A program made the translations under genes and the position numbers. The notes under the pieces were generated by a model, which did not search any database, had not been told where the DNA came from, and saw only the letters and a list, made by a program, of their open reading frames with translations. A stretch of 64,000 nucleotides of DNA from Naegleria gruberi (taxonomy: Eukaryota), in NCBI GenBank assembly GCA_000004985.1, contig GG738879.1; one strand, written 5' to 3'. This document shows, one piece after another, positions 7,774 through 43,765 of this stretch; position 1 is the first letter of the stretch, and each line of letters starts with the position of its first letter.

Positions 7774-10091
7774 CTATCCAAAAACAATGTACATGACGCA
7801 CAACAGACCAATCAAAATCACAGAAAGTGCAACATTCAATACGTGATCAAAGTGATTCTTAATAGTTTCCTTAAATGATGTTTGTTGATTGTAAAACTCT
7901 CTTGCTGATTTCCATAATTGAGAATAATTCAACGTCAAATTTTCAGTCTTTTCAGGAGTGGATGATCCAGTTATATAAGAAATCAAGAATAAACAAATAA
8001 TACTCAACAATGCCATACAAGCACTAAAATGCAAAAAGTTTGATCTGATAAATATTTGTACTAAAGTTCTAGACCAATCTGGAAGTTTGTAAATATCAAA
8101 TGCATTACTATTGAACATGGCTTCCAAGAATAATCTCGATAATCCAATAGTATTTCCCAAAATTAAAGTGAATAAACTTCCATAATGGTTTGGTGTCTTT
8201 GAGAGAATTCCCATCAAGAAAATGACAGCAATTGGAGCTGCCAAATAGCCCATAACTTTGTGAGTGTAAATGTAAAGTTGTTTGGAGAGGACTTGAACGA
8301 CTGGAATGAAACCAAGACCAACTACTGTAACAACAGCACCTGCAATCTTACCAACAATGACATATTCGGTATTTCTGTTTGGTAGTTCAGAAGTTGAATC
8401 TTCGGCAGCTTCTCTTGGAGTTGATGGAGAATCATTCATTGGATCCAATTCTCCCAAATCAGAAACTGAAGCAGATGGTTTAGTTTCATCCAATTGAATT
8501 TCAATTTCTTCTTCAATTCTTGGTTCATTCTTTTCTTCAATGACTTCGATATTAGATTCAGCATTCAATTTAACATTTTCAGCCAATTTCTTTCTATCAA
8601 AATACTCTCTCACTACTCTATACAAATCCATTGTAAACAAAGTACTCGATGAGTGGAAAATACTTGCTAAACTACTCATCAAGGCAGCCAAAATGGCAGC
8701 AATAATTAAACCCTTAACACCAACAGGAACCAACTTGTCAATTAAAAGAATGTAAGCCACATTAGGATCCTTTTCAACTTGAGGAATCAAAACTCTGGCA
8801 ATCATTCCAGGAATAACCATTAAAAAGAATGGTAAAAATTTGAGGAAAGCTGCCAAGATACATCCTCGAATGGCATTAGCAAGATCTTTGGCAGCAAGTG
8901 CTCTTTGTACAATGGATTGATCTGTACACCAATACCTATTATTATTATTAAAAAATAAGAATATTCAATTATTACAATAAAAATTGTAAAATTTCAATAA
9001 ATTCAAAACATACCACATTGAAGTCCAAGACATTCCCAAAAAGACTCCAGTCACTGGGAAATCATGATGCCAAGGGGGTTGAAACAAGTGTAACATACTG
9101 TCTGGGAGTTGTTCTTTCAGATGTGAATAGCCACCAACTTGAACCATTCCTTGTGCATAAACTAACAAGGCACCAATAACTAAAACACCAGTTTGCAAAA
9201 CTTCAGTATAAATAACTGCACTCAATCCTCCCAAAACTGTATAAATACCTGTTGCTACGACCACTGCTGCAGCAGAAACCCAAATATTCCATCCTAAAAG
9301 TCTATTCGAAACCATTTCCAATAATTCTCAATAAATTCCACAACAATTTCAATTACTTACACTTGGAAAACCACAACACCAGCATAAATAGAAACACTAA
9401 TCTTTGTCATGACATACATTACCAAAGATAACAAACTCAAATACATTCTGGAAGTTCTATCAAATCTCTTTTCAATAAATTCAGGTAATGTATAAACTTT
9501 AGTTTTCAAATAGAATGGAATAAACAACCATCCCAACACTAAAATCCAAACAGGTGAATACAATTCTGCCATGCCAACTGCCAATCCAATTGAAGCTCCA
9601 CTCGATGACAGTCCAATAATATGTTCTGCTCCAATATTTGAGGCAAATAATGAACAAGCAATAGCAATGGCTCCAATATTACCATTGGCAAGGAAAAAGT
9701 CTTTGGAACTCTTCTTTTCTTCCTCTTGTTTTGTGTTATCTTCCTTGTTTTCAACAGACACCACTACTCCTTCGGAATTGTTTTGATCCAAAGCAGTACT
9801 AGAGCCACTAATACTTGTGGCCACATCATAGAGAGAATCCTTGGAAGGAATTGGTTGCATGGCCACATCACCATACGGATCATGTTCCTTTAAATGTTGT
9901 GGTATTTGCTGCTGATTAGACTTGAATTTAGATTGCAACCACCGATAGACTCTTTTGATATATGACCACAATGAAGAGTGCAATCCAACAATAATAACCA
10001 ATATAAAGTAAATGACAATCACGGCAATATCCAATGGTTGAAGAGGTGAAGCACCCGATGATGTAGATGATGATGATGAACTTGTTGACAT
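7774..10091 (-). CDS. Sodium:solute symporter of the SLC5/SSF family. Exons 10091..9362, 9301..9014 and 8934..7774, introns 9361..9302 and 9013..8935.
   Basis: Exon contents align with SGLT/SSF landmarks (FFLANGNIG…, …GLSAVIYTEVLQT…, …SMWYWCTDQSIVQRALAAKD…GCILAAFLKFLPFFLMVIPGMIARVL). The junctions CAAGT|GTAAGT…GAATAG|A and TGTG|GTATGT…AATAG|G restore the conserved WYWCTDQ motif in frame. Confidence 0.8.
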
Positions 10092-10437
10092 TCTTTTATT
10101 TAAATTGATGTATTTCAACAAGATATTATTATTACACTACTACTTTCAATATATTGTGTAGTTTTGAAGAGAGAGAATGTGTGATGATGAAATGTTGCTT
10201 CCTCTCTCGGGGTTTTGAAGGAGTGAACAAGGAGGATCCAATAGGTGGTCTGATGTAGCTCCTTTCTTTTGTGTTAGTACTTCCGTTCCATCCATCAAAA
10301 TTGTTTGGATTTTCCAACTTCAAGTAATAATGGATTCTCACAGAGAAAACACTTCATCAAAATTATGAAAGAAGGTATTCCACATTTCGTCATCTTGTGT
10401 TGTTTCACCCTTTCTCTCTGATGTTGGATAACAGTTT

Positions 10438-14112: not shown

Positions 14113-17100
14113 TTAAGGCCTGATAGATTGTCTTGCCTTATCTAAAACATCCTTCTTAATCTTTGGATAATTTGGATGTTTCAATAGAACTTTGTGACAA
14201 ATATCAATGGCTTCAATGTTTCTCTTTGCTTTGAGAAGATTGAAAGCCAATTTGTATCCAACGTTTGGAGAAGATTCATTTGAAAGGAGCCATGCCTTGT
14301 CGTAGGAAGCAGCGGCTTCTTGGAATTGACCTTCCTTCTCGTAAATAAGACCGTTAAGTTCCCATGCCTTAGAGCAAGACTTATTAATTTCCAGAACCTT
14401 CTTTATAAGTTCCTGAGCTACATCGGTTTTGCTACTTGCAATATTAATCTCTGCAAGGAGAAGCCAACCTCTTTCAAAATCATCTTCCCATCCAGTTTTA
14501 ACTTCCATCTTGGAGATTCTCTTTAACATTTGTCTAGCCTTAGCTGTTTGCTTACTCCTTTCAAAAGCATAAGAAATAGCAACTAGAGCAGGAACATAAT
14601 CAGTCTCAACTGATAGAATGTCACCAAATGCAGGAATGGCCTTTTCAATTTCTTCCTTTGATTTACATTTAGCAATTTTAAGATAACCTTGGAGGGTCTT
14701 CTTCTTCATTGTTGATGTGTTCACAGTGGTGAGCTCTTCCAATAATCTCTCTGCAGCAGCGAGACTTTCTGAACGATTTTCGCTCGATAATCTCTTTGGC
14801 GCATTTTCATCGAGAGATTCTGTTGTGGTTTCTGGACTGAGGTAAGTTTCAATCATTAGAACTGTAGCACTTTCTCCCCATTCACCACTCTTACGAGCTC
14901 TGTTAAACCAAACAAGTGATTCTCTTGCATTGTTTCTGTACAAATGATAAATACCATTACAATAATTGTATCCAGGATCATATTCTTCCTTTGGTGAGAA
15001 GTTCTTGGCATTGATCAAGAATTGTTCAGCTTGTTCCAATCGACCAGCTCTTCTCAATAGAGTGATTAATTTCACCAAAGCTTTGTAGTTATTTGGCTTG
15101 TTTTGAAGGAATGCTTGGAAGTGTTCGATAGCATCTTCAAATTTGTTATTTCTGAACATGATATCAGCCATCATAATTGTAGCTTGTTCGTGAGCCTTAT
15201 TCAGTCTCAACAAACTAGTGCAATAGCTGTGACAGCTCTCGATATCATTATCCTTCAATGACAACTCAGCTAGGGCAAGCATACTCTTCTCGTGAGTTTC
15301 ATCGTATTGAAGACCTTCTCTGAAAAGAGCCATAGCTTTCTTGGTATCAGATCTCAAATGATATTCTCCCAATTCATAGCAAATCTTGGCAGTAATTTGT
15401 TTTTCTGAATAGAGAGTATCTTGTTGAGAGTTTTGTAATCTGGAAAGAATTTTAACTTGCATAGACTTTGCTTGCTCGAGATCTGTCATGGCAACTTTAA
15501 GATCACCCATCTTGCTGTGAACTTTGGACAACAACAAATAAATCTTAACATACATGGCCATACCACTAATGTGATTAAGTCTCTTATTATCAAGAACACC
15601 AATCGATTCCATTAGGACAGCTTCGGATTCTCTTGATTTTCTCAATTTCAAATATAATTGAGCAGTTTCATATCTTGCATCAGTGTTATTTGGATCCATC
15701 TCAATAGCATCCTTATAACAAGAGATGGCCTCATCGTAATTGTGCACAAGAACAAATGACTTTGCAATCTTATTTCTCAAAGCAAGATTCTTCTGATCAA
15801 GACTGAGAGCCTCTTGGTATGCTTCAATGGCTTTTTCTGGTTCTTGGATCTTCATGTAAGCATCACCAAGGCACAAATATCCAGATGCTGATTTGGTTGC
15901 CTTCTCAACTAGTTCTTCGTAACACTTGGCATAGGCTCTCTTATCGTTTCTGTTGAGGTAAATTCTAGCAATTTCAGATTTGGCCAACATGAAATAACCA
16001 GAATCTGCTGGAACAGATTGAAGGATTGAAATAGCGCTTTCAAAATCATTTCTGCTAATTGAAAGTCTTGCATTTGCAATAATGATACGACCTTCTTGTT
16101 CTGTTCTTTGGAACTTTTCGAGGGCCTGTTCAATGTACTTGGCAGCTTCAACATATTCGTTTCTTCTGGAGTGAATAGAGGAGAGTTCAAGGAAAATTGA
16201 AACCAATTCATCGTCACTGATCTTTCTTTGAGTGATTTCAGTTTTGAGAATTCTTTCAAGGTTTTGAATGGCATCTTTTGTTTCTCCCTTTGCTGCTAAA
16301 ACCTTGGCCTTCAAGAGGTTGTAGTCACATTGCTTGGTTACTGAGAAATCATAACTGATAGCTCTTTCAAGTTCTGTTGTGGCGAGAGCATAGTTTTCTT
16401 GGTGGTGGGCAATTTGGGCCAACAAGATGTGGGCTTGCGAACTCTTATTGTCAAATTGTAAAACTCTGGATAAAATTCTTTGGGATGATTCAAAATCTCT
16501 CATAACAAACTTGGTCTTGGCCAAGAGTAATTGAGGAAGGATGAGACCAGAAACTTCTGCAGTAAGGAATGTCAAAATTCTTGAAGCAAGAACCAATTCT
16601 TCAGTTGGAGGATCAGTTGGATTTAAAGGCTCACTTGGACTCAGTCTCATCAATTCATTTACAACTTCAAGAATGAATTGCGCATTGAGAGCAGCATAGT
16701 ATTCCAAGCCCTTCTTCTTGACTCTAATTTCCTTCTCGTGTAGTGAGAATACATCATTGAGAGATTTGGTAAAGTTTTCCGAATTCTTGTTACATCTTTG
16801 CTCGTATAAAGCTCCCAAGAATAAGAGTTCAGCTCTGCTTTCTGTTGTATCTTCTTGTACTTCATCTTCGTCGTCTTCCATCAATTCAATATCTCCAAGG
16901 AAATCCTTGTATTGAGTTGCGATTTCCTTCTTATTTTGAAGAATGAAACACTTATATAACCCCTTATTAGCTTCAATACTACTTTCATTGAGTTCCAATG
17001 CCTTTCTGAATGAGGTTTCCGAATTGATAAAATCTCTCATAGTCAATTGAATATAACCTTGAAGAATGAAATAGTCTGCCTCAATAGGATTTGCCTTCTT

Positions 17101-18165
17101 TGCCAAATTCAATAAATCGAGACATCTCTTCAGCAGTTCTTCCCTTCCTTCTGTCAGTGAGTAGAAGGTCTTAGCCAAAGTGAAGCATAATTTATCATTC
17201 TTGGATTCCTTCTTTGTAATTGATTTGAATAATTCGTTAAACTGGTTCACAAGATCCTCATATTGCGATCCTTTAACAAAATAGAATAATAAATTAATAT
17301 ACATGGCATCAACGTTGGAAGGATCTTGTTTTTGAATTCTCAGAGCTGTATCCCTGCATTGGTTCCAATCATCAATTTGCATTAATAATCCACATTTTTC
17401 AGTCAGAGCAGGAACGAAGTTTGGAAAACTTAAACTGACTTGACTGCAAATATCAATAGCCTGTTGAATCTTGTTTTGTTTTTCAGCATTGTAAACTTTT
17501 CCCATAAGAGCATCCACATTTTTAGGATCAAATTTAATACAAGCATCAAACAATTGTTCACAATCCACAAGTTCAATTTCCTCATCCATAACAGTCACCC
17601 AAGCTTTTACAGTATCCAAATTAGAGTAAGGGTCACGATATCTATCATCAATCTATTCATCATTTAACTTGGTTGGAATTAAAAATCAACTTACATCTTC
17701 CAATAAACTTCTTGCCTCATCAAATTCACTCATGTGCAAATACAACATGGCTGCTTGAAGTTTGGCAGAGTTTTGAGCTGATCCTTTTTCCATTTCAACA
17801 AAAGTCTTTAAATTTTCAATTTCTTGTTCATCTTGGTGAGCTGATTGTTCGTGAGCAAAAATCAAACCAATATACGCAGCTAATTGTACCTCCTTTCTTT
17901 CCTTAATCGTGTTGTATCCCTTTATTGCTTCAGTTAAATTTCCTTGCATACAATGACTATAAGAGTGCCACAATCTAATCACTGGATCTTCTCCTCTCGT
18001 GAGAAAAGTCTCACACATTTCCGTGATACTAGAGAAATACTTTTTCCTACAATTATAATTAATATATCCCTGAAGTTCTCCGACACTTGTGATTGTACTC
18101 CCCTTCAGAGCAGAGAGTGTTGTATTACCTTGCATGGCGCCCATACCAACAGATTGCCTCATCAT
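14113..18165 (-). CDS. IFT139: Intraflagellar transport protein 139 (IFT-A subunit TTC21B/THM1), a TPR-rich protein. Exons 18165..17695 and 17653..14113, with a 41-nt intron at 17694..17654.
   Basis: The N-terminus (…INYNCRKKYF…DPVIRLWHSYSHCMQG…AIKGYNTIK…LIFAHEQS…) and C-terminus (…NVGYKLAFNLLKAKRNIEAIDICHKVLLKHPNYPKIKKDVLDKARQSIRP) align closely with human TTC21B. The donor GAT|GTAAGT and acceptor GAATAG|ATT keep the frame and give …LLEDIDDRYRDPYSNLDTVKAW…. Confidence 0.9.
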
Positions 18166-22906: not shown

Positions 22907-25088
22907 TTATTGATTGTCAACCTTGATGAATAATTCCTTCAATTGGTCTTCTTCAACTTCTCCTGGAGCTTGTGTCATGATTTCATTTCCAGAACTAGAT
23001 TTAGGGAAAGCAATAACATCTCTGAGAGTCTTGGCCTTATCTTCACCACACAACAAACAAATCAATCTATCAAAACCTAAAGCCAAACCACCATGAGGAG
23101 GAGCACCATAACTCAAAGCTTCAATAAGGTGACCAAATCTGACCATAGTTCTCTCTTCTCCGAGTTCCAAAACCTTTTCCAAAACATACTTTTGCATGTC
23201 AGCTTGATGGATACGAATAGAACCACCACCCAATTCAACACCATTCAAAACACAATCGTAGTGTTGACCACGAACCTTCAAAATGTCATTAACATCATCA
23301 CTGTACAAGAGCGGAATATCTTCAGCATGTGGAGCAGTGAATGGATGGTGCATTGCGGAGAGACCTCGTGATGTGTGTAAGTGAGCTTGACCATGTTGAT
23401 CTTTGGCTCTTTCGAAAAGTTGGAAATCAATAACCCACAAGAAACGATACTTTTCTTCAATGGTATTGAATTGATAGATACCTTGTTCGGTCATGTACTT
23501 GGCACATTGTTCTCTAACTCTACCCAATCCCTTAACAGTAGTTTCCCATTCCTTATCAACAGAGAGAATCAACATATCACCTTCCTTAAGATCCAATTGT
23601 TCTCTCAATTTAGCTTGTTGTTGTTCAGTGAGCTTTCCATTCAAGAATGGTTCTTCAGGCTTACCAATCTTGGTGGAAATGATGAGACGAGTCTTTTCAA
23701 CACTCTTGGCCTTTTCAGTGAATTGGTCAATGATCTTTCTAGTCATTGTAGCACCAATTTGTTTAGCCTTAAGGGCATAAACGAAACCAGCATCAGCAAC
23801 AGTTTGATTGACAATTTCAATTTGAGATTTTTCATTCTTGAAAATTTCAGTAACATTCTTAAACTTTAAATCTTCATATCTCAAATCTGGCTTGTCACTT
23901 CCGTACATCTAATTATAATGAATATTATAAGATGATGATTATTTGAAAAACTTACATCCATAGCATCTCTATATTTCATTTGTTGGAATGGAGTCTTGAT
24001 ATCAATTCCTAAAATATCCTTCCACAACATTTTGATGAAATTTTCAATGAGAGCATAAATATCCTTTTGAGTGAGGAAAGACATTTCAAGATCGATTTGG
24101 GTGAATTCTGGTTGTCTGTCCATTCTTCCTGATTCATCTCTGTAACATCTGGCAATTTGGAAATATCTATCCATACCACCAACCATGAGAAGTTGTTTGT
24201 ATTGTTGTGGACTTTGAGTGAGAGCATAGAATTTACCCTTTTGCCTTGTTGGAACCAAGAATTCCCTGGCACCTTCTGGTGTTGATTTAAAGAGAGTTGG
24301 TGTTTCAATTTCCAAAAATCTATTCATTTCACCAAAGTATTTTCTAGTGATGGCAAGGGCCTTTGATCTAATTGACAAATTTTCAACCAATTGTCTTCTT
24401 CTCAAATCCAAATATCTATACTTGAGTCTGATTTCTTCTTCAGCATTAACCAATTGCAATGGCAAGGTCTTGGCCTTATTGAGAAGTAACAATTCAGTAG
24501 CTTCAATTTCATAGGCGCCAGTCTTCATGTTTGGATTCATCATCTCCGATGGACGTTTAGAGACAACACCACTCACAAAAACTACACTTTCATTCTTGAT
24601 TTCATTATCCTTCAAATATTCAATCACTAATTTTCACATTTTCACACCAATGATGACACACAAATAAACAATTTACAACAGATTCTAAAAAACCTACATT
24701 CTTTCTTCTTCAACATGACTTGAACAACTCCACTCACGTCACGCACAGTAACAAAAACACATTCATTTTGATTGATAATACGAATATTTTCCACCCATCC
24801 ATTCAACTTGACTTGTTTTCCAACAAGTTCATCACCAACAACTTCTCCACAATATTGATTTCTTTGATATGATTCTCCAAATGCAATTGTTTGATTCTCC
24901 GAACGAGCCTTGATAGATGAAGAAAAATTCATCATACATTCCTTGTTATTATTAAATGATGATAATGATTGATTGTTCTTCAATGTAGAGAGATTTGTAA
25001 TTCCGGAAAAAACAGCCTTTGAATTTCTCTTTAAAAGATTCCTAGCTGAGGAGGCGGAGAGCAAAGCTTTGGTTTGGTTGCGAAGCAT
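22907..25088 (-). CDS. DARS2: Aspartyl-tRNA synthetase of the bacterial/mitochondrial type. Exons 25088..24699, 24626..23956 and 23908..22907, introns 24698..24627 and 23955..23909.
   Basis: Exon 1 has a basic presequence and the anticodon-binding OB fold (RNQYCGEV…KLNGWVENIR…). Exon 2 has class II motif 1/2 (…LKYRYLDLRRRQ…ETPTLFKSTPEGAREFLVP…YFQIARCYRDE…). Exon 3 has …YRDAMD|MYGSDKPDLR… with the bacterial-type GGGSIRIH and motif 3 ALGFDRL. Both junctions are in frame, and the YGSDKPDLR motif is restored across intron 2. Confidence 0.88.
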
Positions 25089-31590: not shown

Positions 31591-32028
31591 TTAATATTTT
31601 GATGAAAGGAAATTTCATGAAAATCAACAACAAAAGAAAATAACAAAACAACATGTTCTAGGCGATTTATTTCGCTTAAATTTTAGGCGAAATTTATCTA
31701 GGCGAATAAAATCTGCATGCTTGGGTCATGCGAAATTTATCCTTATGGTCATAACTTCCATAAATATTGAATATGTTGAGAAAAGGTGTTTATCATTCTA
31801 CTTTTCCAATGTTGGAGGTATGAACAACAAGGTCAAAACCATCGTCACAAGTCATATTTTATATGGTGTTAAAGATTGGACTCTTTCTACCTGATTCAAT
31901 AAGATANNNNNNNNNNNNNNNNNNNNNNNNNNNNNNNNNNNNNNNNNNNNNNNNNNATTAATATTTTGATGAAAGGAAATTTAATGAAAATCAACAACAA
32001 AAGAAAATAACAAAATAACAATAAGAAA
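31591..32028 (+). repeat. Direct duplication of a ~65-70 bp leader/promoter segment (ttaatattttgatgaaaggaaatttcatgaaaatcaacaacaaaagaaaataacaaaa…) on both sides of the gap.
   Basis: Copy A is at 31591..31655 and ends in ATGTTCTAG. Copy B is at 31957..32028 and runs into the ATG of the 32029 gene. The copies are about 95% identical by eye. Confidence 0.7.
31907..31956. other. Assembly gap (run of 50 N).
   Basis: A literal run of 50 'n' characters. Nearly identical sequence (31591..31655 versus 31957..32028) lies on either side, which suggests a collapsed local duplication. Confidence 0.95.
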
Positions 32029-32244: not shown

Positions 32245-32700
32245 TCTCCATTTTACTCAAATTTTGTAAAACCTAGGCAATCATTGTAAATAAATTGTAA
32301 AATAGTAACTGGAAAGAACAATGCCAATCAATTTTTCAATCAAAAAAATTGCCAAGAAATGAAAAGTATCATGTGAAAAATATTTGGTCAATCGAGAAAA
32401 ATAGAAACCTTTCAAAAATTCACCAAGTTCAACAATAGTTTAACAATACATCATAGTAGTTTCGGATCATCATCATTTTCTTCCAATTTTAATATAAATT
32501 TTGATGAAATAACTGTTGAAAAAGATGATGATAATCCATCTGCTCTCTATTTGCACAGTTTAGTCTTGTTGGATTATTCGAATATTATTAACGAAAATAT
32601 CAATGATTTACTCTTGTCGGCATCAGAGAGTGGATTCCAATTAATTGGCCATACTTAGAGGAAAATAGAAATATATAAACATTTCCAAATTTGTAGTGAA

Positions 32701-33780
32701 TTATTCATCTTGTGCAATAAGTGAAATATCACAAAGCTTCGAATTGTTGGCTATTCTCCAAAGAACTGGTTTCCATTCTCTTCCACTTTCTCTCAAACAT
32801 TTAGAAATGAATGGAAACCTAGATTTCACTCCACTGAAAATCAAATCCTTAATCCCATTAACCTCCTCCTTATTTAGCAAATTAACAATGTGATACTCTG
32901 TTTCGTGTTCCTCAAAAAATTCACTCATCATTGAATTAATGACCATTCTTTCGTTTTCATTTGAGATTCGTTTCAATTCTTCCCTCATTTCATGATTCTT
33001 CAAATTTTCATAAACAACTCCTCGTTTCAGTTTTGATTGCAAAATATCTGGTTTGGTGAATAGGACTATTATTCTACAATTTGGATTAAACTTTTGAAAT
33101 CTTTTACAAGCAGTAACAGTATAATTGAACTTTCGTTTTTCATATTCTAATTCAGTGTAGGGATTATCAAAATCTGAAAGTCCATAAAAAAAGAATAGGA
33201 AATGGACATTGTCAAAACAGGCGAATACTTTCTTCCATTCATTTCTGGATCCTCCAATTTCTATCATTTTGTATTTAAAGGAGTGATCAATTATTGGATT
33301 CGAATATAAAAAATCATGAACAATAAAACCTGTAGTCCTTTGCGAAGCATAAATTAAAGGATTTTCCAAACGATTATCAAAATTTCCATTCAATAAGTGT
33401 TCCATAAATAAGGTTAAATTTTCAAGTCTCCAAACATTGAAATACTTTTCCAATAAGATTCGTCTCATTTCGTCATGTTTCCAAATCCGTGTAAGCATCT
33501 CCCTAGGTCTTGGAATTCTATCAAATTGATTCAAATTCTTCAATCTTGCAAATTCTTCATCCATTGAACAAAACTCATCAAAATCTTCCATTCGTGATAA
33601 CAGAACATTACAACAAGCATCAATTTGATTCTCATCACGAATTGTTTCATTGATGAGTTGTCTGCTGAATGTACTTGCTCCGGATCCGGGAAAGAGCCAA
33701 ATGTTTAGTTCTTGTGTTTTGGAAGAGGTTGAACTTTCGTCAAGTTTCTTCTCAGTGTTTCTGCTTTGCTTTGAACCCAT
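32701..33780 (-). CDS. Heterotrimeric G-protein alpha-subunit-like protein with degenerate nucleotide-binding motifs (putative pseudo-GTPase). It carries an N-terminal MGxxxS myristoylation consensus.
   Basis: It is collinear with Gα. The P-loop region is WLFPGSGASTFSRQL, where Gα has GAGESGKST. The helical-domain motif is RIWKHDEMR. Switch I is SQRTTGFIV. Switch II is EIGGSRNEWKKVFACF, where Gα has DVGGQRSERKKW with the catalytic Gln. The G4 motif is TKPD where Gα has NKxD. It begins MGSKQS. Confidence 0.65.
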   Translation of the reverse strand: MGSKQSRNTEKKLDESSTSSKTQELNIWLFPGSGASTFSRQLINETIRDENQIDACCNVLLSRMEDFDEFCSMDEEFARLKNLNQFDRIPRPREMLTRIWKHDEMRRILLEKYFNVWRLENLTLFMEHLLNGNFDNRLENPLIYASQRTTGFIVHDFLYSNPIIDHSFKYKMIEIGGSRNEWKKVFACFDNVHFLFFFYGLSDFDNPYTELEYEKRKFNYTVTACKRFQKFNPNCRIIVLFTKPDILQSKLKRGVVYENLKNHEMREELKRISNENERMVINSMMSEFFEEHETEYHIVNLLNKEEVNGIKDLIFSGVKSRFPFISKCLRESGREWKPVLWRIANNSKLCDISLIAQDE

Positions 33781-33913
33781 TTTTTTCTTTAGAAATTCAA
33801 CAAGTTCATTAGCTGATCGTCATCATTTAACATTTATCCTAAACTATTCTTCTTCTTTATTCGAATGAATACTTGAACTCAATGTAGTTGACCAAAAATT
33901 AATCCCAAAAAAA

Positions 33914-35101
33914 ATGAGTAAACGATCAAGAACCCTTTCACGCGGATGTGAAGAAAATTTCCCCACAGAACCCAATCACAAGAAAATTTGCCCAATTTTT
34001 CATCAAATATTTTCGGATGATTCAATTTTTGAAATTCTTTCATTCATTGATCATGAGAAGGAAGGCAAATTTATTTTGATGAATTGTGCGTTGATTGCAA
34101 AGCAGTGGATGAATGTCATTTTGGAACGTTCTAGGTTGTCACTTGCCATTGAAATTGGAAATTTTAGTGAAATTGTGTCGTGTCGATTTTTACAAAATAT
34201 TGTCAAGTTTAGAGTGAGTATTGATAGAGATGAAAGTGATGGGAATTTTCAGGTTTTTGAAATGATGAAGCATTTGACTCATTTGGATATTCGAAATAAT
34301 GGTATTGGATATGAAGGTGCACAGTCAATTGGTAAAGTGATGCAGTTGACTAGACTTTGCATTGCTGGAAATAATATTGGAGAAAAGGGAGCAAAATCTA
34401 TAAGCCAATTGACACAATTGACCACTCTTGATGTATCATTTAATCAATTATGTGATTATGGAACTAAATTTATAAGTCAATTGTCTCGATTGACTGATCT
34501 CAATATTCGTGGAAATAGAATTACTGACAAGGGAGCTATTTTTCTGTCAGATTTAAAAGAATTGAGGTTTCTCAACATTAGCTCTAATACAATTCTCCTT
34601 GAGGGAATCAAATCCCTCACTAATTTAAAACAATTAACTCAACTCGATATCAGTTACAATAACATTTTACCTTCATATGCCCAAACAATTAGTGAAATGG
34701 ATCAATTGACCAATCTTAACTTGAGTTATAATGATTATGGTTGGGGAAGCGATAGCAATGGTGTGAGATATATATGTGAAATGAAAAATTTGAAAACTCT
34801 GACTTTCGGAGGTATCTGTATCCGACAATACATTTTCAACTACATCAAGGAAATGAAACAATTGGCTTGCCTTAATATAAGAAGTAGCTATATTGGCTCT
34901 TCTTCTGCCAAGTTGATATCAAGCATGAATCAATTGACAGAACTAGATATTAGCTATAATGAAATTGGTGATGTTGGAGCGAAACATATTAGTGAAATGG
35001 ACCAATTGACTTCTCTTAACGTTGAAGGTTGTAGAATTAATTCTGAAGGAACTGAATATCTTAAACAAATGAAACAATTAACATATCTCAACATTTCTTA
35101 G
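33914..35101 (+). CDS. F-box-like plus leucine-rich-repeat (ribonuclease-inhibitor-type LRR) protein.
   Basis: An N-terminal F-box-like stretch (…IFHQIFSDDSIFEILSFIDHEKEG…) is followed by about 10 LRRs of the form LTxLxIxxNxIGxEGAKxISQLxQLTxL. Confidence 0.7.
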   Translation: MSKRSRTLSRGCEENFPTEPNHKKICPIFHQIFSDDSIFEILSFIDHEKEGKFILMNCALIAKQWMNVILERSRLSLAIEIGNFSEIVSCRFLQNIVKFRVSIDRDESDGNFQVFEMMKHLTHLDIRNNGIGYEGAQSIGKVMQLTRLCIAGNNIGEKGAKSISQLTQLTTLDVSFNQLCDYGTKFISQLSRLTDLNIRGNRITDKGAIFLSDLKELRFLNISSNTILLEGIKSLTNLKQLTQLDISYNNILPSYAQTISEMDQLTNLNLSYNDYGWGSDSNGVRYICEMKNLKTLTFGGICIRQYIFNYIKEMKQLACLNIRSSYIGSSSAKLISSMNQLTELDISYNEIGDVGAKHISEMDQLTSLNVEGCRINSEGTEYLKQMKQLTYLNIS

Positions 35102-39629: not shown

Positions 39630-42002
39630 ATGAAAAGACTATCACCCCTTCTCTGTTTGGTGTTTGTTATTGTCTGGGTCAATTCAGCTCTTGCAAATAG
39701 TTCTTCTTCTTTCCTTTTATTCGAAACTAGCATGAATGTAAAGCAGCTTAATGCATTAAAATCGGATGTTGTTTCTCACGGTTATGATTATTTGACCATG
39801 TTCATATGGAAGAGCAGCATAAACAAGTTTGATTGGTCATCATCAGAAGAGCAATATAACTTTACTACTTTATACCAACATTCGGCTGATTTCTCCTACT
39901 TGGAGCAGAGATTATCAAACAATATGCTTGCTCAGGTGAAACGTGTGGTTTCGTCGACGAGGTCCAAATCACTCCAATCCGTGATCCCATTGGGAGTAAA
40001 ATCTCTGACACAATCGTCTTCAAGCTCCACCTTTTCCATTGGTATTGATTCTGCAGTTTCTGATGAATTTTCTAATTTTGCCTCTTTCAACAATGTTAGA
40101 GTTGATGCCAACTCTTTACTATTTTCAATGAATTTGCAAATGTGTAGATTAACAAATGTCTATGAAGATTATGATGTCATGATTACAACAATGAGTCAAT
40201 TTGTTAATAATATTAGGTATTATAGAGAGGGAAGTGGAAAGAAAAAGTCAGCTTCTGAATATATCAATACTAGTGACTTTTATATTGTACCACTTGTCCC
40301 ATTCTCAGTGGTGGTCAACTCTGATTCAATTCAATCGATAAGTGTTCATTCAGTTTCTAGTAATCCAATATCAGGAAGTGATCAACTTGAAAAATTGAAG
40401 AATTCTGGACAGGCCCTCTATGTCATTAATAATGAAAAGGAATGTTTCAGTAATCAACTTTATTTTGGAGATCAATCGGATAAGAATTCTTTATTGATGT
40501 TGACAAGAATGGGACAATTAACAAGTAGAGATCAATCTTATTTAAATACGAAATTTGGAAGTTCTATAATTTCATACAATACATCATTGTACAATTCTCT
40601 GATGGATACTTTACAAAAAGATTACAAAAATATTAGAAATGGATGGACTATGAACGAAACTATTTCATCACTTTTGACATCATCTTGTCATCCTTGTTCA
40701 ACAACCTATTGTATTACTTTTAATGATAATGATTATTGGATTATTCCTCATTTTGTCATTTGTATTTTATACTTTAGTTATTTGTTTTTATCAAGATATT
40801 TCAAGAGGCCTGCAATTTCTAGAAGATTACTCGTGCCAATAATTCCTTTCCTCGAATGTGTTATTTCTGAAATTGCTTTTATGAACTTTTGGGATCCAAT
40901 CTGTAATAGAATATTTTGGTACATTTGTATGTTTGTCAATTGCTTCTCTGCTCTTCTCTACGTTTTTACCTTTGTTAGATTTTACTATTTGAAGAATTTG
41001 CACTTTTTCATGACGAGGGTGCAGAAGGAATCTCACATCAAGTTATTGAAATATCTTGGAAGTGCTTCCTTTGGACTCTGGGTAACACCACTGGCCAGTT
41101 TTATCATTACTCTATTGTTGACAGCTCATGGTTTGCCAATGTTTGCAATTCCTACCTATTCTGTCCATGAGGAGAGTATAATTTTTTATGTGGTGGTCGT
41201 TTTGTGTGCTGGTGCTATTGTTCTAATTGTGGACGTTATTGTGAATAGAAAGTATATTAAGGCAAAGGGAATTAGAAGTTTTCTACTCTTTGATGATCCA
41301 TTTTACTTGAGAATTGATATGATAGCTGTGGTATGTGCCTTAGTTGCCATCATTGTCTATATTATACTCAAGTTGGCTGCCACAGATGCTTTATCACCAG
41401 CAGTTATTGGAATTCCAAGATTTGTTGCCAATGTTTTTGTAATTTTGTTCTGTGGAGGCAATGCCTTAATTGGTGAAACTTGGAAAGATATCAAATATAG
41501 AAAGCAAAATAAGGATTTGAATGAGAATGATGAAAACTTAAATCGTTCAGTACTTCTTCAAACATATTTACAAAATGCCGATTTTCATGAATTATTCAAA
41601 CATTATTGTGAAAAAGAATTTTCTGGTGAGAATATGAATCTTTTCGATGAATTGGAGAAATTGAGATCTAATGGAAATAAGGAACTCAAATTGGAAATAA
41701 TCGCCAGGATTGAAAGAGATTTCATTCATCCCCAATCCAGATACAGTGTCAATATTAGTGCTGAGGCAAATAATAATTTCTATGGACTACTCAAGACAGT
41801 GAAAAACAAAAATAGTGACAATGTCAGTGTCACCTCAGGAACCAGTAATGGAGATAGTGTTAAGGTTGAGCAAATGGTGAAAATTCTCTCTGACGACATT
41901 TCCACCAACATGTACGATACCTTTACAAGATTTTGCAGGAGTAACGAATATGTCAAGTGGAAACATGTTTACGATCTTCAAAAGGCACAGGACAGATTCT
42001 AA
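39630..42002 (+). CDS. Seven-transmembrane receptor with a C-terminal RGS domain (7TM-RGS, AtRGS1-like architecture) and a large N-terminal ectodomain with a signal peptide.
   Basis: Signal peptide MKRLSPLLCLVFVIVWVNSALA. An ectodomain of about 340 aa is followed by seven hydrophobic helices between roughly residues 370 and 610. The C-terminal RGS box is …FHELFKHYCEKEFSGENMNLFDELEKLR…IIARIERDFIHPQSRYSVNIS…MYDTFTRFCRSNEYVKW…. Confidence 0.75.
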   Translation: MKRLSPLLCLVFVIVWVNSALANSSSSFLLFETSMNVKQLNALKSDVVSHGYDYLTMFIWKSSINKFDWSSSEEQYNFTTLYQHSADFSYLEQRLSNNMLAQVKRVVSSTRSKSLQSVIPLGVKSLTQSSSSSTFSIGIDSAVSDEFSNFASFNNVRVDANSLLFSMNLQMCRLTNVYEDYDVMITTMSQFVNNIRYYREGSGKKKSASEYINTSDFYIVPLVPFSVVVNSDSIQSISVHSVSSNPISGSDQLEKLKNSGQALYVINNEKECFSNQLYFGDQSDKNSLLMLTRMGQLTSRDQSYLNTKFGSSIISYNTSLYNSLMDTLQKDYKNIRNGWTMNETISSLLTSSCHPCSTTYCITFNDNDYWIIPHFVICILYFSYLFLSRYFKRPAISRRLLVPIIPFLECVISEIAFMNFWDPICNRIFWYICMFVNCFSALLYVFTFVRFYYLKNLHFFMTRVQKESHIKLLKYLGSASFGLWVTPLASFIITLLLTAHGLPMFAIPTYSVHEESIIFYVVVVLCAGAIVLIVDVIVNRKYIKAKGIRSFLLFDDPFYLRIDMIAVVCALVAIIVYIILKLAATDALSPAVIGIPRFVANVFVILFCGGNALIGETWKDIKYRKQNKDLNENDENLNRSVLLQTYLQNADFHELFKHYCEKEFSGENMNLFDELEKLRSNGNKELKLEIIARIERDFIHPQSRYSVNISAEANNNFYGLLKTVKNKNSDNVSVTSGTSNGDSVKVEQMVKILSDDISTNMYDTFTRFCRSNEYVKWKHVYDLQKAQDRF

Positions 42003-42091
42003 ACAAATCGTACGTCCATAAGGATGTACTATTATTTAAATTATTATTTTTTAATAATATAATACTTTACAATTTTACAAGTTTGAAAAAA

Positions 42092-43765
42092 ATGTTTCAA
42101 GATGATCATCTTTATGATACGAAGGTGATCATTGAATTGGATTCCAATTATAAATCACATCATTTACAATTTAAATATTCACTCTTTAATGAAGCACTAA
42201 AGGTTAACCATCCGATATTGTCCCACACCTTCTTTGGTAATGATTTTATTTCGCACTCGAATGTTCAAAGGCTTTTATCTTCATCATCAGAGGATTGGAG
42301 GTACATTCCGAATGCCATGTCATCTAATAGGGAATTTGTTTTACAAACTGTTCAGATTTATCCAAATTCTCTCGAGTTTGCTTCTTCCGAAATGAAACAA
42401 GAGAAGCAAGTTATTTTGAAGGCCATTGAAACTGAGTGGAAAGAGAAGGAATCTCGTCCAAGAAGAGAATCTACAGAATTTACGTTATCGAGAATGAGTG
42501 AAAGTTTTCTGGTTCTTAGAATGGCAAGTCTTCTGCTACATAACGACAGAGAATTCTGTTTGGATGCGAACAAGTATTGTAATTATGTACTTTCTGTATT
42601 AGAAGTTAATAGAGATTTGGTATTGGATTGTGTGAAAACAAATGGAAAATCACTTGCAAGTGCTTCACATTTTGAAAAAACATACTTGATGGATTTGGAG
42701 ATAGTTACGGAAGCTCTCAAAGAAAACTTATCTGCATTGGAAAATGTTTTTCATGAATCGATTATTTACAGGGATGGATTTATTGATAAATTGAGGGAAA
42801 TTTACAAGTATAGGGAGTTGGAGAATCGAGAAAATTTACTGAATGCTGTTAGAGAAAATGGATTCTTCTTAATGTTGGCCAATGACGATCTCAAGAACGA
42901 TAGAGAAATTGTACTGGCTGCTGTTGAGCAAAATGGATGGTCCATTCGATTTGCAAACAAAAGATTCACAAAAGATAAGGAAATTATCAAAGTAGCACTG
43001 GATAATGATTGGAAGTCTCCTGTCATCTTTAGGGATTACAGAGCTTTTATGTATGTTGACAAATCAATTATGAGTGATAAGGAATTCATCCTCGAAATTC
43101 TTCCAAAACATTCAATTCTAGCATATGTGGATAAGGAACTGCTACAAGATAGATCTTTCGTTTTAAAAGCTGCCCAATCAAACCCACTTTCCTTCAAGTT
43201 CTTTCCGAAATATTTTCAAAACGATAGAGAAATATTTATTGCAGCGCTTAATCACCCTCCTCAAAAGACAACTTATTATAATCAAATTATATGTTCCCAC
43301 AGAGGAGATTCACTTGTTTCGAATGAAATATTGGGTATGGTTAATGATAAGTTTCGATCAGATAAGGAATTGGTATTGTGTGCTTTGAAATTATCTGGAT
43401 ATAACTTGAAATATGCTAGCGAGTCTCTAAAGGAAGATGTAGAAATTATTGATGCAGCTCTTTCTCATTCACCCTTGTCAATAATGTATGCCGGTGATTC
43501 AATTTGTGGAAATGAGGATTTTATTTTACAAATTGTTAAGAAATATGGAGTACTACCAAGAAACTCTGAATACGATAGGAGTTTTGCCCTTAAAGCTGTG
43601 TCTGTGAATGGTCTAGCATTGAAATATTTCAAGGTTTGGAAAACAGACAAGGAAGTAATCATTAAGGCAGTTCAACAAAATTACAAAGCAATAGAATTTT
43701 CTCCTAGGTTTTGGGAAGATCCAGATGTGATAAGAGAGGCATTGCGGAATTTCTATTCGAAATAA
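42092..43765 (+). CDS. DUF4116-repeat protein.
   Basis: The true ATG is at 42092. The track start at 41957 is non-ATG and overlaps the upstream gene. The protein consists of many ~30-aa repeats of the DUF4116 type (NDREIVLAAVEQNGWSIRFANKRFTKDKEIIKVALDND; SDKELVLCALKLSGYNLKYASESLKEDVEIIDAAL; KTDKEVIIKAVQQNYKAIEFSP…). Confidence 0.7.
   Translation: MFQDDHLYDTKVIIELDSNYKSHHLQFKYSLFNEALKVNHPILSHTFFGNDFISHSNVQRLLSSSSEDWRYIPNAMSSNREFVLQTVQIYPNSLEFASSEMKQEKQVILKAIETEWKEKESRPRRESTEFTLSRMSESFLVLRMASLLLHNDREFCLDANKYCNYVLSVLEVNRDLVLDCVKTNGKSLASASHFEKTYLMDLEIVTEALKENLSALENVFHESIIYRDGFIDKLREIYKYRELENRENLLNAVRENGFFLMLANDDLKNDREIVLAAVEQNGWSIRFANKRFTKDKEIIKVALDNDWKSPVIFRDYRAFMYVDKSIMSDKEFILEILPKHSILAYVDKELLQDRSFVLKAAQSNPLSFKFFPKYFQNDREIFIAALNHPPQKTTYYNQIICSHRGDSLVSNEILGMVNDKFRSDKELVLCALKLSGYNLKYASESLKEDVEIIDAALSHSPLSIMYAGDSICGNEDFILQIVKKYGVLPRNSEYDRSFALKAVSVNGLALKYFKVWKTDKEVIIKAVQQNYKAIEFSPRFWEDPDVIREALRNFYSK

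Follow-up and report, generated by a model that had tools for sequence, protein, structure and literature searches.

A 64,000-nucleotide stretch of Naegleria gruberi DNA (assembly GCA_000004985.1, contig GG738879.1; hereafter the window) carried on its minus strand a gene for a homologue of the heterotrimeric G-protein α subunits (Gα), NAEGRDRAFT_50404. The G1, switch I, G3 and G5 motifs of this protein departed from those of competent Gα, and G4 conformed to them (Table 1). A sequence-only reading of the window had described the product as a Gα homologue with degenerate guanosine triphosphatase (GTPase) motifs and a candidate pseudo-GTPase; this core description, and not that of an artefact or a dead gene, held on the motifs, on the relatives and on the ratio of nonsynonymous to synonymous substitution rates (ω). 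The 359-residue translation of the open reading frame (ORF) agreed from end to end, at 100% identity, with the N. gruberi "predicted protein" NAEGRDRAFT_50404 at NCBI (EFC42511.1 / XP_002675255.1 / UniProt D2VKV9). The window is accordingly nuclear DNA of N. gruberi, and the public gene model was the same as the ORF.

The G+C content of the window was about 29-37%. A missed intron or frameshift, masking a canonical protein with GAGESGKST, DVGGQ and NKxD, almost certainly did not account for the degenerate motifs. The ORF was unbroken and collinear with positions 4-325 of the Pfam model, the other frames around the P-loop contained stops and lacked GK[ST], and no G-x4-GK[ST] or GK[ST]T was found in the six frames of window positions 32501-34000. 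The P-loop DNA was also base for base the same in L001, a contig from an ENA metagenome that had been sequenced independently, and the same motifs occurred in the paralogue NAEGRDRAFT_65833, whose relationship is described below. The degenerate motifs were therefore not an artefact, and a rescue of the motifs by a corrected gene model, the first outcome that the sequence-only reading had named as speaking against it, was rejected, since no frame or model yielded GK[S/T].

Table 1. Coordinates of the NAEGRDRAFT_50404 gene, its motifs and other features of the window (substitutions in human Gαi1 numbering).
Feature	Coordinates	Strand	Basis or remarks
Gα-like coding sequence NAEGRDRAFT_50404, complete, single exon, 359 codons	32701..33780	-	ORF list; stop at 32701-32703
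N-terminus MGSKQSR, N-myristoylation consensus, no Cys for palmitoylation	33760..33780	-	PROSITE PS00008 match at Gly2
G1/P-loop LFPGSGAST, degenerate	33670..33696	-	HMMER and MAFFT alignments
All-helical insertion domain, about residues 45-135	33376..33648	-	Invariant Trp100 in RIWKHDE
Switch I (G2) IYASQRTTGFI	33322..33354	-	R178S, arginine finger lost; T181, T182, G183 kept
Switch II (G3) EIGGSRNEWKKV	33226..33261	-	D200E, Q204S, R208W, W211V; G202, G203, E207, K209, K210 kept
G4 LFTKPDIL	33040..33063	-	N269T; K270, D272 kept
G5-equivalent strand YHIVNLL, replacing THFTCAT	32875..32895	-	TCA to VNL; clade signature YHIVN
C-terminal extension SGVKSRFPFISKCL...KLCDISLIAQDE, about 44 residues, clade-specific	32704..32835	-	Alignments; conserved FISxC[L] and LxDIxI
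Head-to-head intergenic spacer, 133 bp, shared with the leucine-rich repeat gene	33781..33913	.	ORF coordinates
Leucine-rich repeat gene, 395 residues, LRR_6 and LRR_8 repeats	33914..35101	+	Divergent from the Gα-like gene
Seven-transmembrane RGS gene NAEGRDRAFT_69573	39630..42002	+	Signal peptide; 7 hydrophobic segments at 370-616; RGS PF00615 at 647-775
Ten-DUF4116-repeat protein (264 bits)	41957..43765	+	Directly downstream of the seven-transmembrane RGS gene
Assembly gap (run of 50 N)	31907..31956		About 750 bp downstream of the 3' end of the Gα-like gene
Aspartyl-tRNA synthetase-like gene (tRNA-synt_2 and GAD)	22907..24627	-	Two overlapping ORFs
Full-length TTC21/IFT139 homologue	14113..17619	-	Intraflagellar transport complex A
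Sodium:solute symporter	7774..10121	-	Two ORFs about 500 bp apart

Gα homology and the state of the GTPase motifs

The Pfam G-alpha model (PF00503) matched residues 6-310 over positions 4-325 of its 333 (E 9e-19; 68.2 bits, with a gathering score of 48.8), and a phmmer search of the PDB sequences with NAEGRDRAFT_50404 matched 195 Gα chains. An AlphaFold2 model, built from an 11-sequence alignment and of moderate confidence (predicted local distance difference test, pLDDT, 73; predicted template modelling score, pTM, 0.72), displayed a Ras-like β/α core and, set into it at residues 51-130 between G1 and G2, six helices (51-62, 67-72, 75-82, 92-101, 103-112 and 119-130). When the model was compared to the PDB with Foldseek, the best matches (E below about 1e-6) were all Gα chains; the top ones, with E from 1e-11 to 1e-9 and template modelling scores of 0.5-0.6, included N. 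fowleri Gα7 (6ne6) and Entamoeba Gα1 (4fid). NAEGRDRAFT_50404 was a Gα by homology and fold, with a match far beyond chance, and the collinearity with Gα that had been read from the sequence was borne out by both the Pfam score and the modelled fold.

The human Gαi1 sequence, first checked to be identical to the PDB chains over 354/354 residues, served as the ruler for motif positions, which were mapped from the HMMER alignment to PDB Gα chains and from MAFFT alignments. NAEGRDRAFT_50404 and Gαi1 had in common the Ras-like core with its six-helix insert, W131, T181-T182-G183, G202-G203, K270, D272 and an N-terminal lipidation consensus. They differed by low identity (about 18%), by K46A, R178S, D200E, Q204S, W211V and TCA to VNL, by the loss of the α3 NRMxES motif (unnoticed by the earlier reader), by an N-terminus shorter by 11-13 residues and by an altered α5 tail. 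The helical domain was about 20 residues shorter than that of Gαi1, and the position of W131 was occupied by Trp in 15/15 aligned sequences. For this domain an LW-x-D motif had been claimed; the motif was actually IWKHD, of which the Trp alone was invariant.

The strings on which the sequence-only reading had relied were all there: GSGASTFS (residues 32-39), EIGGS (174-178), TKPD (242-245) and MGSKQS. In the ungapped HMMER alignment, LFPGSGAST lay on Gαi1 G40-T48, with G40L, A41F, G42P, E43G and K46A, and with S44, G45, S47 and T48 kept; the MAFFT alignments placed a 2-residue gap in the P-loop instead. Under either alignment G40 and G42 had no glycine counterpart. A35-S36-T37 aligned to K46-S47-T48, so that the P-loop had lost its Lys, as had been proposed, but had kept the Ser and Thr that were thought to be missing. 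The loss of the catalytic Gln in EIGGS was upheld as Q204S in the alignments. Several changes had been overlooked, namely the loss of the arginine finger in switch I, R208W and W211V in switch II (which also kept C214 and F215) and the replacement of the G5 TCA. TKPD had been counted among the degenerate motifs, but it fits the general G4 consensus (N/T)KxD (PMC8584482) and [TS]K[PAV]D occurs across the clade to which the gene belongs; as a lesion it was rejected. K270 and D272 within it were invariant in 15/15 aligned sequences.

In Gα enzymes the transition state of guanosine triphosphate (GTP) hydrolysis owes its stability to Arg178 and Gln204, Lys46 contacts the β- and γ-phosphate groups, and Trp211 both senses and stabilises the GTP conformation. 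Since the arginine finger, Gln, Lys46 and Trp211 were all lost, no meaningful GTP hydrolysis is expected and switching is unlikely. The absence of the arginine finger alongside that of Gln is the strongest evidence in the sequence for a putative loss of catalysis.

Relatives within Naegleria and selection on the gene

Close relatives were few. Among 5.8 billion proteins, a word-indexed search matched three, i.e., the gene product itself, the N. gruberi paralogue NAEGRDRAFT_65833 (P0003; 70% identity) and an environmental sequence (P0002; 78%), and a profile search added few relatives beyond these. When 1.84 billion cluster representatives were scanned exhaustively with HMMER, there were 178 matches, 6 of them below 1e-10, and the nearest besides the query were 31-36% identical. 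Scans of JGI metagenomes returned no relatives.

The paralogue displayed FSKCGAST, ASTKTTG, EIGGSRSEWKKA in switch II, FTKPD and YHIVNLL, with the same K46A, R178S, D200E and Q204S, and with Ala at W211. As these lesions were common to both paralogues, they predate the duplication. Contig L001 also encoded G-A-S-T, EIGGS and TKPD. The sequence-only reading had staked its case on relatives with the same substitutions, and these three motifs were shared by both NAEGRDRAFT_65833 and L001.

A neighbour-joining tree placed the gene in a clade of 17 sequences (99/100 bootstraps), within which NAEGRDRAFT_50404 and its paralogue formed a pair (100/100). All named members of the clade were from N. gruberi, N. 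lovaniensis or N. fowleri, the remainder being environmental sequences. The clade was marked by [TS]K[PAV]D at G4, YHIVN at G5, VINSI, a C-terminal FISxC...LxDIxI and the lack of Arg at 178, all of which were found in NAEGRDRAFT_50404. No clade member had an arginine finger, and DVGGQ was found in P0004 only. Most members kept GK[ST] (P0004, P0007, P0009, P0010, P0011, P0154, P0155 and P0156), P0008 displayed G-T-S-T, and P0033 and P0065 had no recognisable P-loop. Within the clade, T182 (together with G183) was kept by the NAEGRDRAFT_50404/NAEGRDRAFT_65833 pair only. Pfam G-alpha scores reached 386 bits for the canonical Gα P0016, 86-172 bits for clade members, 62-68 bits for the pair and 38 bits, below threshold, for P0033; P0065 gave no match. 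Judged by motifs and scores, NAEGRDRAFT_50404 is among the more degenerate members in an erosion of GTPase chemistry that runs through the whole family.

The two more eroded N. gruberi members of the clade, P0033 (NAEGRDRAFT_52181) and P0065 (NAEGRDRAFT_62775), had an unrecognisable β1/P-loop. G3 read IENRGT in P0033 and was unrecognisable in P0065, where G4 read THPD. Both kept YHI[VI]N, and a near-match to the tail motif (YLSPCL) was found in P0033 only.

Both ends of the protein were unusual, and neither the short N-terminal region nor the C-terminal extension had been noticed in the sequence-only reading. The P-loop GAST was preceded by 33 residues, as compared to 43-50 before GK[ST] in canonical Gα (about 11-13 fewer), and residues 1-20 had a pLDDT below 50 (about 35 over the region) and no helix in the AlphaFold2 model. 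The PROSITE match agreed with the myristoylation consensus recognised earlier in MGSKQS, and N-termini of the form MGxKxS/T recurred in P0003, P0004, P0007, P0008, P0011, P0154 and P0156; the N-terminus of NAEGRDRAFT_50404 is probably myristoylated.

At the other end, the NAEGRDRAFT_50404 version of the C-terminal motif was FISKCL, and the model showed a short α5 (304-315), a loop and a helix at low confidence (336-348). The alignments indicate that the extension replaces or interrupts the receptor-coupling α5 tail, and it may have been inserted into α5 and not appended to it. The last residues of the extension loosely resembled the canonical Gα tail (IKNNLKDCGLF vs IANNSKLCDISLI). In P0003-P0011, P0154 and P0156 the C-terminal module followed a shortened α5 and consisted of [PT][FY]IS[PKND]C[LI] and then a helix ending in L-x-D-I-x-I.

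Selection was estimated by comparing the window gene with the P0003-like C-terminal half of L001 (217 codons), which stood in for the DNA of P0003. The NG86 method gave 0.205 nonsynonymous (dN) and 0.60 synonymous (dS) substitutions per site and an ω of 0.34, and YN00 an ω of 0.36; the codon-bootstrap interval of ω was 0.23-0.54, with 0/500 replicates at or above 1. These values argue against free decay and favour maintenance of the protein under putative purifying selection. Stretches identical between the paralogues comprised IPRPREMLTRIWKHDEMRRIL in the helical domain, LFTKPDILQSKLKRG and VKSRFPFISKCLR, as well as the myristoylation consensus, the hydrophobic core and the FISKCL motif. Both paralogues were intact, as was the allele in the environmental sample.

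Contig L001 (ENA ERZ929261, contig k127_185710, positions 1-1226), when compared to window positions 32701-33895, was a mosaic of both paralogues. From the 5' flank through codon 140 the DNA of L001 matched the window gene at 97-100% identity. Over codons 141-358 the identity to the window, taken in blocks of 20 codons, was only 65-87%, and the protein encoded there was nearly identical to NAEGRDRAFT_65833. The 3' flank differed from the window, and the switch fell in a stretch shared by the paralogues, FMEHLLNGNFDN. The mosaic reflects either a chimera made by de Bruijn assembly or a real event, gene conversion or a recombinant allele.

Genomic neighbourhood

NAEGRDRAFT_50404 stood head to head with the leucine-rich repeat gene, and the spacer between them presumably serves as a shared bidirectional promoter. 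A tblastn search with NAEGRDRAFT_50404 as query found no further Gα paralogue in the window. The gene NAEGRDRAFT_69573, for a seven-transmembrane (7TM) protein with a C-terminal regulator of G-protein signalling (RGS) domain and a Ser-rich ectodomain of about 350 residues, lay 5.8 kb away, with three genes in between (the leucine-rich repeat gene, an unknown ORF and a C2 gene). It belongs to the large 7TM-RGS family of Naegleria, which has been described for N. fowleri, a species with 28 7TM-RGS and 80 other RGS genes (108 RGS-domain genes). With about 100 RGS genes among about 15,000, an RGS gene would be expected by chance within four genes on either side in an estimated 5% of cases, and within the window in about 20%. 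Gene neighbourhood is weak evidence in eukaryotes. A functional link to the 7TM-RGS protein drawn from proximity alone was judged not significant, and the proximity could be chance.

The ORF of the DUF4116-repeat protein overlapped the end of the RGS gene, and its true start is probably further in. The two overlapping ORFs of the aspartyl-tRNA synthetase (AspRS)-like gene presumably reflect an intron or a frameshift, and the two ORFs of the sodium:solute symporter (SSF) presumably an intron. The intraflagellar transport homologue fits the flagellate stage of Naegleria. The genes around NAEGRDRAFT_50404 were of kinds usual in eukaryotes; others in the window encoded an ABC1 kinase, NOT2/3/5, BTB proteins, a pyridoxal phosphate (PLP) enzyme, a glutathione peroxidase and an S-adenosylmethionine (SAM) decarboxylase.

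Proposed function, alternatives and meaning

A GTPase fold, the loss of catalytic residues, lesions shared by relatives and purifying selection (pairwise, over half of the gene) were found together in NAEGRDRAFT_50404, which are the marks of a pseudo-GTPase. On balance we lean towards an intact, maintained, membrane-anchored and non-cycling pseudo-GTPase, or nucleotide-poor adaptor, that belongs to a fast-evolving Gα subfamily with Naegleria-only named members. To judge from its motif losses, such a protein would be unable to hydrolyse GTP and would not cycle, and in vivo it would bind guanine nucleotide weakly or not at all. It could serve the very large G-protein/RGS network of Naegleria as an adaptor or decoy, tethered to the membrane and independent of nucleotide, in a mode analogous to that of the plant XLGs, which would amount to partner binding without nucleotide cycling. 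RGS-domain proteins would be the most plausible partner class, because the RGS-contact residues T182, G183, E207 and K210 are retained; T182 and G183 are key RGS contacts in the RGS4–Gαi1 structure. Among the roles put forward by the sequence-only reading, a constitutive scaffold appeared the most compatible with the data. A regulator of Gβγ is less attractive, as the αN region was short, of low confidence and unstructured in the model, and W211 was replaced by Val.

Several observations weigh against the adaptor. Ligands of Mg2+ and phosphate (S47, T48, T181), of the γ-phosphate (G203) and of guanine (K270, D272) were retained, and residual or even tight GTP binding may be possible. An ω of 0.34 is relaxed for a Gα, and it is a pairwise average of two lineages over part of the gene; L001 may be chimeric, and either copy may be in decay. 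In N. fowleri and N. lovaniensis no orthologue with more than about 50% identity was found, and conservation is therefore demonstrated within the N. gruberi lineage only.

The retained ligands bear most directly on the possibility of a GTP-locked, always-on Gα, which would bind GTP·Mg2+ without hydrolysing it and would be controlled by expression level, lipidation or phosphorylation, as Rnd and RhoH are. All Mg2+, γ-phosphate and guanine ligands except the P-loop Lys were kept, K270 and D272 without exception among the 15 aligned sequences, and most clade relatives kept GK[ST] without Arg and Gln, so that binding without hydrolysis was probably the ancestral state of the clade. In P-loop NTPases, however, a Lys-to-Ala change usually cuts nucleotide affinity severely, and this change was found in both paralogues, with both P-loop glycines gone. 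The three residues before Gly45 also differed between the paralogues (PGS vs SKC), which suggests a relaxed constraint on phosphate binding, and D200E, the Val or Ala at W211 and the VNL in place of TCA at G5 point the same way; we consider a GTP-locked protein rather unlikely. A young decaying duplicate, or incipient pseudogene, under relaxed selection and without a function kept, is distinctly unlikely. It would fit a family of about 44 Gα genes, the number given for N. gruberi in PMC8584482, the continuum of erosion within the clade down to members below the Pfam threshold (P0033, 38 bits) or without a match (P0065), an ω that is high for a Gα, and the lack of an orthologue found in other Naegleria species. 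It would also fit the literature search, in which no paper naming the NAEGRDRAFT_50404 locus tags or accessions was found. Decay is nevertheless hard to reconcile with 359 stop-free codons at a genome G+C of about 31% (chance about 1e-13, estimated from base composition), with lesions shared with an intact paralogue when both copies have stayed open since a duplication at dS of about 0.6, and with an ω significantly below 1. The consensus N-terminus, the core, IPRPREMLTRIWKHDEMRRIL and FISKCL were moreover identical in the paralogues, and the environmental allele was intact.

A bolder version of the adaptor would make the whole clade an independent family of non-hydrolysing Gα-like proteins, built on the C-terminal FISxCL...LxDIxI module. 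The NAEGRDRAFT_50404/NAEGRDRAFT_65833 pair would then be nucleotide-free, myristoylated decoys that keep RGS or 7TM-RGS proteins at the membrane by means of a T181-T182-G183 switch I surface, retained in canonical form by this pair alone in the clade, a protist parallel to XLG. As a whole, this proposal is improbable.

GTPase-fold proteins such as Rnd and RhoH have lost catalytic residues and are regulated outside the cycle between GTP and guanosine diphosphate (GDP); they belong to another GTPase family, and many of them bind GTP tightly with a P-loop Lys, which NAEGRDRAFT_50404 has lost. Among known Gα-type proteins the best functional analogy may be with plant XLG1-3, which have the Gα fold with eroded G-boxes in common with NAEGRDRAFT_50404. 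XLG1-3 display very low GTPγS/GTP binding, function independently of GTP, and need no nucleotide for their interaction with Gβγ and RGS (PMC8584482). The N-terminal extension of XLGs is long, whereas NAEGRDRAFT_50404 has 359 residues and a short myristoylatable N-terminus and is thus not of XLG type. Its erosion was independent of that of the XLGs, as it lies in a clade with Naegleria-only named members and has a C-terminal extension of its own.

In the same organism and family, a lineage-specific expansion of Naegleria Gα with deviation of catalytic motifs in some members has been reported (Anantharaman, Abhiman, de Souza, Aravind 2011, Gene 475:63, as cited in PMC8584482), and Gα1-13 of N. 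fowleri have been described (Bosch et al. 2022). Those N. fowleri subunits that were studied biochemically (Gα1-3 and 5-7) bind nucleotide or cycle it, and the switch II Trp is said to be present in every Gα of N. fowleri. NAEGRDRAFT_50404 has lost that Trp as well as the arginine finger, the catalytic Gln and the Lys of the P-loop. The N. fowleri relative P0013/P0154 fell in the NAEGRDRAFT_50404 clade. A literature search on heterotrimeric pseudoGTPases returned nothing relevant. NAEGRDRAFT_50404, annotated as a predicted protein, is a real example of an already reported phenomenon, and no new kind of mechanism is indicated. The clade signature (no arginine finger, TKPD, YHIVN and the FISxCL tail) may or may not have been described already.

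If NAEGRDRAFT_50404 is a working non-cycling Gα, it would be a second independent case, beside the XLGs, of the Gα fold used as a nucleotide-independent adaptor, in an organism whose G-protein/RGS repertoire is among the largest known. The graded series within its clade, from the near-canonical P0004 to P0065, which is invisible to Pfam, would be a natural experiment on the dismantling of a GTPase switch.

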